Below, in pieces: positions 4,844 to 8,566 of a DNA stretch of 64,000 nt. A program made the translations under genes and the position numbers. The notes under the pieces are model-generated. The model was given only the letters and a program-made list of their open reading frames with translations, was not told the origin of the DNA and did no database searches. Position 1 is the first letter of the stretch, and every line of letters begins with the position of its first letter. This stretch comes from Alphaproteobacteria bacterium (GTDB lineage Bacteria > Pseudomonadota > Alphaproteobacteria > GCA-2731375): the NCBI GenBank assembly GCA_965232515.1, contig CBDDPY010000002.1:2464001-2528000 (forward strand), in the 5' to 3' direction.

Positions 4844-5000
4844 CCGCCAAACTTGGCCACGTCGACGTCTCTTGCAGTTTCGACCGCAGCGGCGCACCAT
4901 TATCGCTATCCGTTGCGAACAAAGCGCAGCCAAGCGTCGAGTTTGACGCAAACAAGGAGTGAAGAAGCGGTCTGCTCGGCGCCCTGATAGGGGAACGCAG

Positions 5001-5432
5001 ATGTACGTAGACTCCATTCTGAAGCACAAGGGCCAGGACGTCGTGAGCGCCGGCCCCACGGATGAAATCGTCGAGACGGCCCGGCTGCTTAACCGGCACC
5101 GGATCGGCGCGGTTGTCGTGCGCGGTGCCGACGGCCAGGTGGTCGGGATCCTGTCGGAGCGCGACATCGTCCGCGGTGTCGCCGAAAAAGGTCCGGCCTG
5201 CCTCTCGCTCAAGGTGGCCGATCTCATGACCCGAGAGGTCGTGAGCTGCCGCCCGAACGACAGCATCGACGACATCATGGCGCTGATGACCGAACGGCGT
5301 ATCCGGCATTTGCCGGTGATGCAGGACGGCACGGTTATCGGCGTGATCTCTATCGGCGACGTGGTCAAACGGCGCATCGCCGAGATCGAGTCGGAGGCCT
5401 CCTCCCTGCGGGAGTATATCGCCACGGGCTGA
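5001..5432 (+). CDS. Tandem CBS-domain protein
   Basis: MYVDSILKHKG, IGAVVV, GILSERDIVR, RIRHLPV, GVISIGDVVK. Start moved to ATG 5001. Confidence 0.92.
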   Translation: MYVDSILKHKGQDVVSAGPTDEIVETARLLNRHRIGAVVVRGADGQVVGILSERDIVRGVAEKGPACLSLKVADLMTREVVSCRPNDSIDDIMALMTERRIRHLPVMQDGTVIGVISIGDVVKRRIAEIESEASSLREYIATG

Positions 5433-5529
5433 CCATGCGCGCGCGGCGGGCCGGCGGCCTTCCGCCGGCGCCGTACCGCATCGGCCGGAACTCCGGTCCG
5501 GCCCGCCCGGCGCTAAAAATCGGCCATTT

Positions 5530-5545
5530 TGTGAACGCGATCACA
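5530..5545. promoter_or_regulatory. CRP-type binding site
   Basis: Perfect TGTGA-ACGCGA-TCACA, about 60 bp upstream of the small ORF at 5603. Confidence 0.7.
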
Positions 5546-5602
5546 GCGTCGCGGGGGTCCGCGCGGCACCTTGCCGCTCGCACAACGCTGGGAGATGTCA
5601 CG

Positions 5603-5707
5603 ATGTCGTCACTGCAGGGACGCAACCGCAAAACCTTGTTCGCGCTCGTGGGATCGCTGTGGGTCGCCTCCGTCGGCGGCCTCATCTGCTTGTTCGTTTT
5701 CGCCTGA
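5603..5707 (+). CDS. 34-aa single-TM peptide (paralog of 6211..6318)
   Basis: MSSLQGRNRKTLFALVGSLWVASVGGLICLFVFA, with GGGAGA SD upstream and a CRP box upstream. Confidence 0.65.
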   Translation: MSSLQGRNRKTLFALVGSLWVASVGGLICLFVFA

Positions 5708-5748
5708 ACGATCCGGATGTCAGCCGCCCGCGCGGCGATGGACCGTGC

Positions 5749-5931
5749 TCAGGCGAACCAATCGAACAGCGGCAGCAACACGCCGATCAGGGCGCCCCAA
5801 CCGACAATTGAGGCCACAATCCATACCAACATGGCGCGGCGCATCGAGATCTGGGCGTCATGCGCCCGGCTGGCTCGCGACGCCGTCGGCAGGGACGGCC
5901 GATCAATCGAGATCTGAGAGGAGTTCGTAAT
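5749..5931 (-). CDS. Small single-TM protein (31-60 aa; start ATG 5844 or ATT 5931)
   Basis: C-terminus MRRAMLVWIVASIVGWGALIGVLLPLFDWFA. SD GGGAG lies 7 nt before ATT at 5931; CtrA-type box further upstream. Confidence 0.5.
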   Translation of the reverse strand: MTNSSQISIDRPSLPTASRASRAHDAQISMRRAMLVWIVASIVGWGALIGVLLPLFDWFA

Positions 5932-5977
5932 CGTCTCTCTCCCACGTCTGGTTCCGACAATTGTCGCCCGGCGAGCC

Positions 5978-5992
5978 TTAACGGAACGTAAA
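5978..5992 (-). promoter_or_regulatory. CtrA-type box
   Basis: TTAA-CGGAACG-TAAA (minus strand TTTA-N7-TTAA), the same variant as at gcrA. Confidence 0.55.
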
Positions 5993-6113
5993 GACCGCGA
6001 CGGCCACAAAGGCGGACCGGCAGGCCGTGGATTGTCTCAGATTGAGAATGGCGCATCGGCGGCTGTTCCAAATCAGGTCAATCTTGCGCGACCCGAGACA
6101 GCACATCTTTTCC

Positions 6114-6160
6114 TAAACCGTTGAAATAATTGCGAAACGCAAGTTGGCATATAACCTGCT
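6114..6160 (+). promoter_or_regulatory. IHF-like site plus sigma54 (-24/-12) promoter
   Basis: TTGGCATATAACCTGCT with GG 6146-47, N10, GC 6158-59. Upstream TAAACCGTTGAAA (reverse TTTCAA-N4-TTA, close to the IHF consensus WATCAA-N4-TTR). Confidence 0.6.
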
Positions 6161-6210
6161 TCAACATCTGCGTTGTTTACTAGTAACCGCGTAATCGGAC
6201 GGAGGGCGTC

Positions 6211-6318
6211 TTGCGCAATCTTTCTTCCACCCAACGAGGCATGCTTATCGCCGTATTCAGCGCGCTTTGGCTGATGTCGTGCACGGGTCTCGTCTACTGG
6301 TCCTATCTGGTCCACTAA
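6211..6318 (+). CDS. 35-aa single-TM peptide (paralog of 5603..5707)
   Basis: SD GGAGGG at 6201-6206, TTG start: MRNLSSTQRGMLIAVFSALWLMSCTGLVYWSYLVH-TAA. Below the ORF-track cutoff. Confidence 0.65.
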   Translation: MRNLSSTQRGMLIAVFSALWLMSCTGLVYWSYLVH

Positions 6319-6430
6319 AGCTCGTATCGGCTTGGTCGTCACACCTACCGCCGGTTCCGCATCCGACAACGATTAGTTCAGACTTTTCCCCCATGTTAGG
6401 GGATCGGCCGCAGAAGCGGACCTCCACGTA

Positions 6431-6525
6431 TCCACGAAAAGGCAACGCGCCGGGCACGGCGCCGCGCAAAGCTTCGGACCGGGATCGCCATCAATTGCCC
6501 CGGTCGGCGGAGCTGCCGAATGGAG
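6431..6525 (+). ncRNA. c-di-GMP-I (GEMM-I) riboswitch
   Basis: TCCACGAAAA-GGCAAC-GCGCCG-GGCA-CGGCGC-CGC-GCAAA-GCTTCG-GACCGGG...CCCGGTC-GG-CGGAGC-TGCCGAATGGAG. Conserved GGCAA / GCAAAGC / TGCCGA core with Vc2-like spacing and paired P1, P2 and P3. Confidence 0.82.
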
Positions 6526-6531
6526 ACGACA

Positions 6532-6726
6532 ATGGAAATTAGTCCCAACAATCCCAGTCCTTCCCAGGGCCTGAAGCTTCCCGCCGCCACCGAGCAACGT
6601 ACGGCCGAAGCGCCGGAACGTAATGCCGAACGCGACCGCCGAGAGGTGGACGAGACCTCGCGCGAGCGCATTCAGCGCTCGGACGCCGGTCCCGGCGTCG
6701 GCCGCCGGGTCGATTTCGAGGTCTGA
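6532..6726 (+). CDS. Small hydrophilic protein with a YjfB/'putative motility protein'-like C-terminal G-x-G-x-x-V-D motif
   Basis: MEISPNNPSPSQG...AGPGVGRRVDFEV. SD GGAG at 6522-25 overlaps riboswitch P1. Confidence 0.7.
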   Translation: MEISPNNPSPSQGLKLPAATEQRTAEAPERNAERDRREVDETSRERIQRSDAGPGVGRRVDFEV

Positions 6727-6728
6727 CG

Positions 6729-7661
6729 TCAGCCGAAGATCGACAGCCCAAGCCTTTTTGACAGGAAGGCCATCACGGCCATGCCGGCGACGCTGTTGCC
6801 CTTGGGTCCAAGCGCCGGGCCGTAGCTGGCGATCGCCATGCGGCCGGGCACGACCGACAGGATGGCGCCGCTGACCGCGCTCTTCGCCGGCAGCCCCACC
6901 CGTACGGCATAGTCGCCGACCTCGTCGTAGAGACCGCAGGTGGTCATCAGCGCGACCACCGTGCGCGCGCAATCGGCATCGATGACGCGCCGGCCGCTCA
7001 CCGGATCGACCCCGGCATTCGCCATAAACAGGCCAATGCGGGCGAGACGCCGGGCCGTGACGCCGATGGCGCATTGCCGGAAGTAGGCGTCGACGGCCAG
7101 ATCGGGGTCATCGATGCGCCCATGCTGCCGCATGAAATGCGCCAGTGCCCGGTTGCGAAAGCCCGTTGCCGCCTCTGACCGGTAAACCGCTTCATCCACC
7201 GCAAACGGGGTCTGATCGCAGATCTCCGCCAGGAACGCCTGCAGCGCCGCCACCTTGGCGGCGGCGTCGGCGCCCGGCAGCAGCCCGCTGACCAGGATCG
7301 CGCCGGCATTGATATAGGGGTTTCGCGGCCGGCCGCGCTCCTCCTCCAGGCGGACGATGGAATGAAAGGCATCGCCGCTCGGCTCCACCGAGACGTGATC
7401 GAACACGGCCATGCCGTGCGACTGCATGGCGCAGGCGAGTGCGAAGACCTTGCCCGCGCTCTGCAGCGTGAATGGCGTGTCCGCGTCGCCAACGGCATGG
7501 CAGGCGCCGTCGAGCGTGCAGATCGCGATGCCCAGTTCCGCCGGATCGGCCTTTGCCAGCTCGGGAATATAGTGCGCGACCCGTCCATCGCCTGTCCGCG
7601 CCAGGCCAAGCCGGTGCGCTTCCGCAAGGATCGCGTCGAGGTCGTCGGTCGCGTCAGCCAT
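6729..7661 (-). CDS. glsA: Glutaminase A
   Basis: GRVAHYIPELA, FTLQSAGK (SxxK), EPSG.AF.S, NPYINAGA, TCGLYD, GLPAKSAVSG, GNSVAG. Confidence 0.93.
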   Translation of the reverse strand: MADATDDLDAILAEAHRLGLARTGDGRVAHYIPELAKADPAELGIAICTLDGACHAVGDADTPFTLQSAGKVFALACAMQSHGMAVFDHVSVEPSGDAFHSIVRLEEERGRPRNPYINAGAILVSGLLPGADAAAKVAALQAFLAEICDQTPFAVDEAVYRSEAATGFRNRALAHFMRQHGRIDDPDLAVDAYFRQCAIGVTARRLARIGLFMANAGVDPVSGRRVIDADCARTVVALMTTCGLYDEVGDYAVRVGLPAKSAVSGAILSVVPGRMAIASYGPALGPKGNSVAGMAVMAFLSKRLGLSIFG

Positions 7662-7684
7662 ACGGTCGAAGCTGGTGGGCGGAT

Positions 7685-8566
7685 CTACCGCCAGCAGCCG
7701 ACGCGGGCGACGAACGGCTTCGCCGCATCGAACGCCATCTGCCGGTCGAGCACGTCGATCGACTCGCCGGTCTGGTAGCGCACGTCATGTTTGTCCAGGA
7801 AATCGAAGATCTGCCGGTTGCGCACCGCGACGCCGATATCGGGCATCACCTTGCCGGTCTGCTGATAGATCGCCGCCGTGTTGAACTTGGCGTGGATGAT
7901 GCCGATCACATGGCCGGTTTCGTCCAGCACCGGGCTGCCGCTGTTGCCGGGCCGGACGTCGCCCCGCACGAAAAACCGGCTGGCCGCGATCGTCGTGCCC
8001 TCGGGCCGATAGATCACGCCCTCGGTATAGAACGGCTTGCGGGGCGCAATGCCCTGGGTCGGATAGCCGACCAGATCGGCGCGGCTGCCGATCCGCATGC
8101 CGGCGCCGTTCCGGAATGCCGCGGTCGCCGGCGCCGCCAGGTCGATGTCCAGCAACGCCAGGTCATAGCGTTCCAGCATGCCCAGAACCTTGGCGCGGCG
8201 CTGCTCGCCCGTCGTGGTTTCGACGGTGTTGACGTCGCACTTGTCGACATTGTGCTTGTTGGTCAGCAGCTTGCCGTCGGCGGCCACGAAAAAGCCGGTG
8301 CCGACGCTGATCAGGTCGCGGTCCGGCACCAATGGCGGCGGGCCGCCTTTCAGGGCCCGCTGCATGCGCTGGATGCGCGCCGCCTTGATCTCGGCCGCGC
8401 GCGCTTCGTTGACCACCTCGCCGTCGCATTTGTGCGCCAGCATGCGCGACACCGTCTGGCGCGCGACATCGTGACAATAGACCACGCTCGACTGCGCGAC
8501 GGCCGCCTCGCCGCCGAGCGCCAACACGGCGCCAAGCCATGCCCAAATGAACAGTCGCAACATCAT
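7685..8566 (-). CDS. Secreted trypsin-like serine protease
   Basis: Signal peptide, GTGFFV, TNKH (His), DLALL (Asp), PGNSGSP (Ser). Confidence 0.88.
   Translation of the reverse strand: MMLRLFIWAWLGAVLALGGEAAVAQSSVVYCHDVARQTVSRMLAHKCDGEVVNEARAAEIKAARIQRMQRALKGGPPPLVPDRDLISVGTGFFVAADGKLLTNKHNVDKCDVNTVETTTGEQRRAKVLGMLERYDLALLDIDLAAPATAAFRNGAGMRIGSRADLVGYPTQGIAPRKPFYTEGVIYRPEGTTIAASRFFVRGDVRPGNSGSPVLDETGHVIGIIHAKFNTAAIYQQTGKVMPDIGVAVRNRQIFDFLDKHDVRYQTGESIDVLDRQMAFDAAKPFVARVGCWR

Follow-up and report, generated by a model that had tools for sequence, protein, structure and literature searches.

We analysed a window of 64,000 nucleotides (nt) from an Alphaproteobacteria bacterium (GTDB lineage GCA-2731375; assembly GCA_965232515.1, contig CBDDPY010000002.1, positions 2,464,001 to 2,528,000 of the forward strand), in which positions are counted from the first letter. 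On the plus strand, an aptamer of the cyclic di-GMP (c-di-GMP) class I riboswitch, also called GEMM-I, occupies 6431–6520, and a gene for a charged small protein of 64 amino acids (aa) follows at 6532–6726. A convergent glutaminase gene (PF04960, 362 bits) lies at 6729–7661 on the minus strand, with its stop codon 2 nt from that of the small open reading frame (ORF). On balance, we favour the reading that the aptamer belongs to a working c-di-GMP translational OFF switch in the 5′ leader of this monocistronic gene. The element class, its ligand and the masking of a Shine–Dalgarno sequence (SD) are textbook, and the element itself adds little. The main added value lies in a small-protein family that is always riboswitch-controlled.

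The aptamer, its P1 helix and the ribosome-binding site

An earlier note, made from the letters alone, had placed a GEMM-I core here and had called for a check with the Rfam covariance model. Comparison of the 64-kilobase (kb) window with Rfam 15 by cmscan returned a single match above the gathering score. This match is RF01051 (c-di-GMP-I) at exactly 6431–6520 on the plus strand, with 41.3 bits against a gathering cut-off of 35, an expectation value (E) of 1.1e-4 and an alignment spanning model positions 1–87 of 87. The same aptamer was recovered with E 3.1e-6 when the whole genome was searched with RF01051. All 28 helix pairs of its secondary structure are standard (27 Watson–Crick, one G-U), and it ends 11 nt ahead of the ATG at 6532, in a 5′ regulatory position. 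Judged by its sequence, the element is a genuine, divergent c-di-GMP class I aptamer.

The three residues of the binding triad are found where the earlier note had put them. G6441 is the equivalent of G20, which contacts one ligand guanine, A6468 that of A47, and C6516 in the 3′ GCC that of C92, the Watson–Crick partner of a ligand guanine. The AAA linker (6468–6470) within GCAAAGC starts with A6468. These assignments were read from the cmscan alignment and cross-checked with the RF03167 consensus and the P1 annotation. An A instead of G at position 20, the determinant of the 3′,3′-cyclic GMP-AMP (cGAMP) riboswitches known as GEMM-Ib, is absent, as 6441 is G. With the canonical G/A/C triad, c-di-GMP is therefore expected rather than cGAMP, which agrees with the earlier prediction, and this divergent copy probably binds it. 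For Vc2 of Vibrio cholerae, roles of G20 and C92 in ligand contact are described in PMC11705072. At the level of sequence, C6465 and the bulged G6507 also occupy the model positions of C44 and G83.

RF03167 (c-di-GMP-I-GGC) belongs to the same clan, and several sister aptamers in the genome pass its cut-off. Membership of the copy at 6431–6520 was considered and rejected: it scores 36.6 bits against a cut-off of 59 and has A6468 where the RF03167 consensus has G (GCGAAGC).

The P1 helix connects the aptamer with the ribosome-binding site. Its 5′ strand UCCACG (6431–6436), which resembles an anti-SD, pairs with 6517–6518 and 6521–6524, and all six pairs are Watson–Crick. The 3′ strand CG-AA-UGGA (6517–6524) overlaps the SD GGAG (6522–6525), which stands 6 nt ahead of the ATG, as the earlier note had described. 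P1 is part of the minimum-free-energy fold of 6425–6545, where it is lengthened by CGU/ACG. The spacing AGGAG-N6-AUG is the same in the orthologous modules. All six aptamers of this genome have their start codon 10–14 nt downstream, and in all six the GG of the SD follows directly on ...GAA, with CC in the 5′ strand. This CC...GG arrangement is also present in most of 47 parsed leaders of the GTDB family, flagellin leaders included.

Like Vc2 (RF01051), the element has two hairpins on P1, the residues G20/A47/C92, the AAA linker and the C44-G83 equivalents. Vc2 acts by translational repression; unlike in Vc2, the SD here lies directly in the 3′ strand of P1. We found no terminator in the expression platform after the aptamer, and with a start codon 11 nt downstream, control must therefore act on translation initiation. 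Switches of ON and OFF type are both known among c-di-GMP-I riboswitches. Since the 3′ strand of P1 takes in UGGAG, high c-di-GMP most likely represses translation. In the mechanism we propose, c-di-GMP would bind at the junction of G6441, A6468 and C6516 and stabilize P1 (6431–6436 with 6517–6524), which may be extended by pairing of 6427–6429 with 6526–6528. The UGGA of UGGAG would then be sequestered in the 3′ strand, the 30S subunit would be excluded, and translation of the small protein would fall. c-di-GMP usually represses motility, and the presence of flagellin among the targets with the same layout fits this.

The small protein and its association with the aptamer

The small-protein gene (MEISPNN...SDAGPGVGRRVDFEV) has an alternative in-frame ATG at 6520, which would add METT and give 68 aa. 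ATG 6532 is the likelier start because GGAG stands 6 nt upstream, because the spacing agrees with that of all six aptamers in the genome, and because orthologues from other genera, in which the N-terminus ME(I/L/V) is conserved, begin at this point with the spacing AGGA(G)-N6. Only one close relative's leader was readable, indirectly, from contig differences. Public contigs of four coded runs were compared with 6300–6760, of which runs X4, X6 and X7 leave parts uncovered, and one contig of 771 nt from run X3 represents this relative, which differs over 6342–6728 by 48 letters and 4 gaps and is roughly 88% identical. Within the ORF, third codon positions account for 15 of the 19 listed substitutions (binomial P = 6e-5; two further differences stand outside the list), which identifies a real coding gene under purifying selection. 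The sole insertion in the ORF is one whole codon. A contig of an RNA sequencing library covers 6475–6650 and gives a weak hint of expression.

Close homologues of the protein form 6 clusters with 72–92% identity. For the homologues P0002–P0006, no leader was found, either in a protein scan of metagenome contigs or with an exact 32-base pattern. The family is a narrow one, with 3 representatives recovered from 1.84 billion by a profile of 9 sequences, and no family for the protein was found in Pfam, NCBIfam or the ESM Atlas. The nearest named ESM Atlas clusters are DUF6033 and DUF3879, with FlgM on 23% of one cluster at 0.76, all below the level of evidence. The protein body is highly charged (ERNAERDRREVDETSRER). 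AlphaFold2 with an alignment of 12 sequences predicted one helix at residues 28–50, with a predicted local distance difference test score of 55 and a predicted template modelling score of 0.16.

A broader profile of 12 sequences, including proteins of genus g3 found after riboswitches, was searched in 33 genomes of the GTDB family. It revealed one small-protein gene in each of 18 genomes, namely one in genus g1, 15 of 21 in g3 and both in g6. Every one of these 18 genes lies directly after an RF01051 match. Seventeen start 10–12 nt downstream, and the match in genome G017 is partial, begins at profile position 20 and is consistent with the same spacing. The 17 units of g3 and g6 share the plan of 6431–6726: an aptamer, 10–12 nt with AGGA(G), and ATG GAA. 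Their proteins end alike in ...SD(A/T)G...G..(I/V)D(I/V/L/F)x(A/V/I), although identity to the 64-aa protein is 17–35%. Their aptamers differ from the copy at 6431–6520 in having GNRA loops, an AAA internal loop with GAC, GGC or GUC, a bulged A and a second hairpin of the GGAUAG type. When the 18 leaders are aligned, 99% of the first hairpin is paired, and 4 of its 6 pairs show compensatory changes. MAFFT shifts the 5′ strand of P3 in the copy at 6431–6520 by one column, as the bulged A is missing. Owing to this misalignment, and to g3 leaders being unpaired in the P1 register of 6431–6520, we claim no covariation for P1 or P3.

The unit is flanked by genes for glutaminase and a CBS protein in its own genome, for gamma-glutamyltranspeptidase and a carboxyltransferase in g6, and for iron–sulfur/molybdopterin oxidoreductase subunits in g3. 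No conserved neighbours were found among the three genera. As the flanking genes differ from genus to genus, we conclude that the riboswitch and the small ORF travel as a self-contained unit. The same-genus genome G024, which is 81% complete, gave no match to the small protein and no DNA match to 4900–7700 beyond 63 nt.

The earlier note had also called the target YjfB-like on account of its C-terminus GVGRRVDFEV. That C-terminus is present, and the likeness is real as a motif, but membership in the family is not supported by Pfam. The hidden Markov model (HMM) of YjfB, PF14070 (cut-off 27 bits), gave no match at E up to 10 to the 64-aa protein and the g6 homologues, and none at E up to 1 to the g3 and other homologues. 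A six-frame search with PF14070 found nothing in the genome itself and nothing over the cut-off in the 33 family genomes, where at E up to 0.1 only G021 has a match, at 19.1 bits and thus below the cut-off; in the class, 4 of 301 genomes have a match over it. What the proteins share is small size, about 60–70 aa, and an ending G-x-G-x-x-(I/V)-D-x-x-(A/V). Four alphaproteobacterial YjfB members end in PPGMGAQVDEYA, PEGMGQQIDQYA, PPGTGTKIDLKV and ETLGTNIDISV, and the small proteins end in GPGVGRRVDFEV (own genome), GPGVGVKIDITA (g6) and DTGNNIDVSA (g3). Against a YjfB profile of only 4 sequences, hhalign gave a probability of 37% and a pairwise E of 3.6e-4, and with the broader small-protein profile only the last 12 columns align. 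The body of the 64-aa protein is charged, whereas that of YjfB is Q/A-rich and amphipathic. As far as sequence comparison can tell, the resemblance is confined to a C-terminal motif of 12 residues. Five alphaproteobacterial YjfB loci that we examined contain no Rfam match, and a literature search for YjfB with motility listed no paper on YjfB function.

A bolder proposal is possible but doubtful. It holds that the c-di-GMP-I aptamer and the small protein form an obligate unit, that the proteins constitute an undescribed family of 64–79 aa, charged and probably disordered, and that the C-terminal dodecapeptide common with YjfB is a shared functional handle, which would make these proteins new c-di-GMP-repressed motility factors. 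If the motif were indeed a handle for the flagellum or for export, YjfB would gain its first mechanistic lead.

Peripheral elements and competing explanations

The first hairpin (6442–6467, plus strand; P1b in Vc2 naming) consists of 2 base pairs (bp), an internal loop AAC/CGC, 6 bp and the loop GGCA at 6453–6456 (GC / AAC / GCGCCG-GGCA-CGGCGC / CGC / GC). The second (P2/P3, 6470–6514, plus strand) has 7 bp, a GG bulge at 6506–6507, 7 bp without a break and a 15-nt terminal loop at 6484–6498. Its outer part GACCGGG/CCCGGUC (6477–6483 with 6499–6505) is paired continuously; the model's receptor positions have no counterpart here, and the hairpin contains neither a tetraloop receptor nor the bulged A. 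Vc2, by comparison, forms an A25-G42 pair, and its GAAA loop docks into a receptor of 11 nt. The earlier note had seen the loop that is not GNRA and the unbroken P3 without receptor, both of which the model alignment bears out, and had overlooked the AAC/CGC internal loop and the absent bulged A. The two departures that it named are not of equal weight. According to PMC1950547, the first-hairpin loop of GEMM RNAs is ‘almost always’ GNRA, a receptor is present in almost 50% of them, and GYRA loops almost never occur with a receptor. With a receptor in only about half of GEMM RNAs, its absence at 6431–6520 is ordinary, and the copy resembles the receptor-less type of Figure 2B in that paper. Even the receptor-less RNAs, however, are ‘almost always’ GNRA, unlike this copy.

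The 47 family aptamers to which the copy was compared were drawn from the best 30 of the family-wide RF01051 loci plus further fetched loci and were parsed by regular expression, with 3 chance matches taken out. The expression demanded G at G20 and AA at the linker end, so that counts at these positions are uninformative. On the 5′ side of the internal loop, 43 have AAA and 3 have AUA; AAC is unique to the copy at 6431–6520. On the 3′ side, GAC is found in 37, GGC in 8 and GUC in 1, and CGC is again unique. Of the AAA/GAC internal loop, the copy thus retains only the C44 equivalent C6465. Aptamers outside the expression were read by eye and have GAAA (L043 and L045) or GUAA (L050).

The leader of the X3 relative allows these departures to be ordered. 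In the relative, 6446 is A instead of C, which restores GGCAAA, and the changes 6454 G to C and 6455 C to A turn the loop GGCA into the GNRA loop GCAA. This loop fits the rule of a GYRA loop without receptor in PMC1950547. A further change, 6474 U to C, replaces a G-U by a G-C pair, and 6514 U to C turns the pair A6470-U6514 into A-C. The terminal loop of the second hairpin has six substitutions and one insertion. No difference affects P1, the SD, the binding triad or the CGC side of the internal loop. Since the relative has GCAA, the GGCA loop is recent and at strain level, not a conserved variant, and the CGC side is older. An aptamer that lacks the GNRA loop and the A25-G42 pair and keeps the triad, together with a relative that has GCAA, makes a natural pair for work on peripheral elements.

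Several observations weigh against a working switch. The copy at 6431–6520 has the lowest score of the 18 module aptamers, 41.3 bits against 58.6–71.1 bits for the other 17, a deficit of 17–30 bits. GNRA loops are found in 45 of the 47 parsed aptamers, the exceptions being GGCA in this copy and AUGA in one flagellin leader. With AAC/CGC, the Hoogsteen/sugar-edge pair A25-G42 that is present in Vc2 (PMC11705072) cannot form. Vc2 that has lost the tetraloop stacking contact folds markedly more slowly, and most of the RNA is misfolded for days (PMC11705072), so the copy may respond poorly. The GGCA loop and the A25 to C change are absent from the nearest relative and are therefore recent, with little time under selection. 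The folding energy of 6425–6545 is not better than that of shuffled sequences (z = -1.34; 22 of 200 shuffles at least as stable). The evidence for the element therefore comes from the covariance-model score, the position and the orthologues. A partition function of 6405–6600 gave an SD accessibility of 0.26 with P1 allowed or forbidden, so that no switch was modelled; in this model, pairing over long distances with the GC-rich coding region prevails, and thermodynamic modelling of switching is uninformative in either direction. In the 15 g3 orthologues, the P1 extension over the SD is poorly paired in the register of 6431–6520 (helix 1, 62% of cells). A rival explanation is a decaying or weakened aptamer that derives from the conserved unit. 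Changes of the lineage (G42 to C; A43 to G; bulged A lost) and, added to them, changes specific to the strain (GNRA to GGCA; A25 to C) would have crippled its folding or ligand response. Synthesis of the small protein would in that case be about constitutive, or partly repressed by a P1 that forms independently of ligand. In favour of this explanation, no other aptamer among the 47 of the family shares the loop or either side of the internal loop, and GCAA and the A at 6446 persist in the X3 relative. Against it, no helix pair is disrupted, the triad and the linker are intact along with the C44/G83 equivalents, and the C44-G83 tertiary pair is essential for ligand binding by Vc2 (PMC11705072). 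Moreover, the receptor mutant A62G of Vc2 has wild-type affinity once folded (PMC11705072), and about half of natural GEMM RNAs function without a receptor (PMC1950547). We hold a crippled aptamer to be unlikely, if a real minority possibility. A copy that keeps C6465 and G6507 and has lost the GNRA loop probably still binds c-di-GMP, with folding or response that may be less efficient.

A working OFF switch must also be set against a different output or ligand, that is, an ON switch or a specificity shifted to another cyclic dinucleotide, and against an effect on the neighbouring gene. ON and OFF switches are both on record for c-di-GMP-I (PMC9262584), and the unusual form of the AAC/CGC internal loop is shared, on its CGC side, with the X3 relative and hence tolerated by selection. 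A different output or ligand is improbable, as the canonical c-di-GMP triad G20/A47/C92 is present, position 20 lacks the A that determines cGAMP recognition, the RF03167 score is under its cut-off, and the SD lies inside P1 with no alternative SD-sequestering hairpin evident. Antisense action on the convergent glutaminase gene would make the small ORF incidental, with transcripts reading into glsA. No terminator-like site was found between the small ORF and the glutaminase gene (6726–6729), the two stop codons lie closely together, and the transcripts of the two genes probably overlap. The c-di-GMP family is, moreover, the one reported most often in ‘antisense’ orientation in PMC9943018. Short ORFs of the present kind, if unannotated, make riboswitches look ‘orphan’ or ‘antisense-acting’. 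The ORF is under purifying selection and has been kept with the riboswitch in three genera despite different neighbours, and the platform is a translational one, with the SD in P1 and no terminator to gate read-through. We regard the antisense explanation as the least probable of all.

Further riboswitch copies and neighbouring genes

The genome (7.39 megabases, 4 contigs) contains six RF01051 matches, of which five score 60.6–68.7 bits and the copy at 6431–6520 is the weakest. The other copies precede genes for flagellin, a PilZ protein, an MlaC-like protein and small proteins. In the GTDB family, RF01051 is found in 29 of 33 genomes, with 2–6 copies in each of the 29. Across the class it is found in 12 of 151 genomes, sampled as one per family and including the present genome, in a scan with stricter filters than that of the family. 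The earlier note had called the riboswitch uncommon in alphaproteobacteria. This agrees with the class sample and does not hold for the genome's own family. One alphaproteobacterial family thus uses c-di-GMP-I riboswitches heavily, with a uniform translational layout, and the class as a whole rarely does. The main GEMM hosts named in PMC1950547 are delta-proteobacteria, Alteromonadales/Vibrionales, Firmicutes and Planctomycetes. A full-text search of openly accessible papers found none that describes a c-di-GMP-I riboswitch for a flagellin or small-protein gene of an alphaproteobacterium. Methylophaga is a gammaproteobacterium. It is this genus that the one environmental match of the search concerns (PMC12530212).

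Recurrent targets in the family are a 136-aa CheY-like receiver, a PilZ protein, an MlaC-like protein, a Sel1-repeat protein and flagellins, and the targets also include a ParA/MipZ-like protein. A second riboswitch-controlled small-protein family follows the aptamers L012, L017, L021, L024, L036, L043 and L045. Its members are hydrophobic, mostly of 55–59 aa (the L021 ORF as picked has 103 aa), and have the motif ...PFWSPHG... or ...WWDPYG.... Aptamer L002 (G000:C2:5417810-5417906, minus strand) has the same P1 and platform as 6431–6520 (UCCACG...CGAAUGGAGACGAC). Its counterpart L048 in G024 precedes an ORF of 59/64 aa (METTGMTATAPNPP...GRGTTSGLDIAGRRSGPWGL). In G000, the ORF of L002 is cut to 39 aa and its C-terminal part lies in a different frame, which speaks for a frameshift or an error in sequencing; a gene for a ParA/MipZ-like ATPase follows it. 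Two loci contain two c-di-GMP-I aptamers on one strand. In L044 (G027:C27:155537-155765) they are about 40 nt apart and resemble a tandem riboswitch ahead of a very short ORF, and in L033 (G013:C347:9648-10775) they are about 1 kb apart.

The CtrA-box consensus is TTAA-N7-TTAAC. Three of the six aptamers in this genome, L001, L003 and L004 (G000:C2 near 5562626, 3987834 and 1923480, respectively), have a perfect copy of it 64–82 nt upstream, which suggests that part of the riboswitch regulon is also controlled by CtrA. Within 1 mismatch there is none ahead of 6431–6520, L002 or the flagellin leader L005, and none was found within 2 mismatches near 6250–6430. Counts of CtrA boxes across the window are at chance level (13 observed, 10.6 expected). 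A gene for GcrA, a hallmark alphaproteobacterial cell-cycle regulator, is located at 1468–1857 on the plus strand (PF07750, 147 bits); control searches gave matches in Caulobacter and, oddly, in Sulfolobus. About 80 nt upstream of it, at 1375–1390, stands the CtrA-box-like TTTATTTATTGTTAAC, with 1 mismatch to the consensus.

A 25-codon ORF at 6241–6318 (plus strand), about 110 nt ahead of the riboswitch, encodes a peptide made up entirely of hydrophobic residues (MLIAVFSALWLMSCTGLVYWSYLVH), and GAGG stands 5 nt before it. This could be a small membrane peptide or simply an ORF that arose by chance. In G000, the contigs C3 (5.5 kb, 46% G+C) and C4 (10.9 kb, 42% G+C) stand apart from the chromosome with its 65.5% G+C and are possibly small plasmids, foreign or contaminant contigs.

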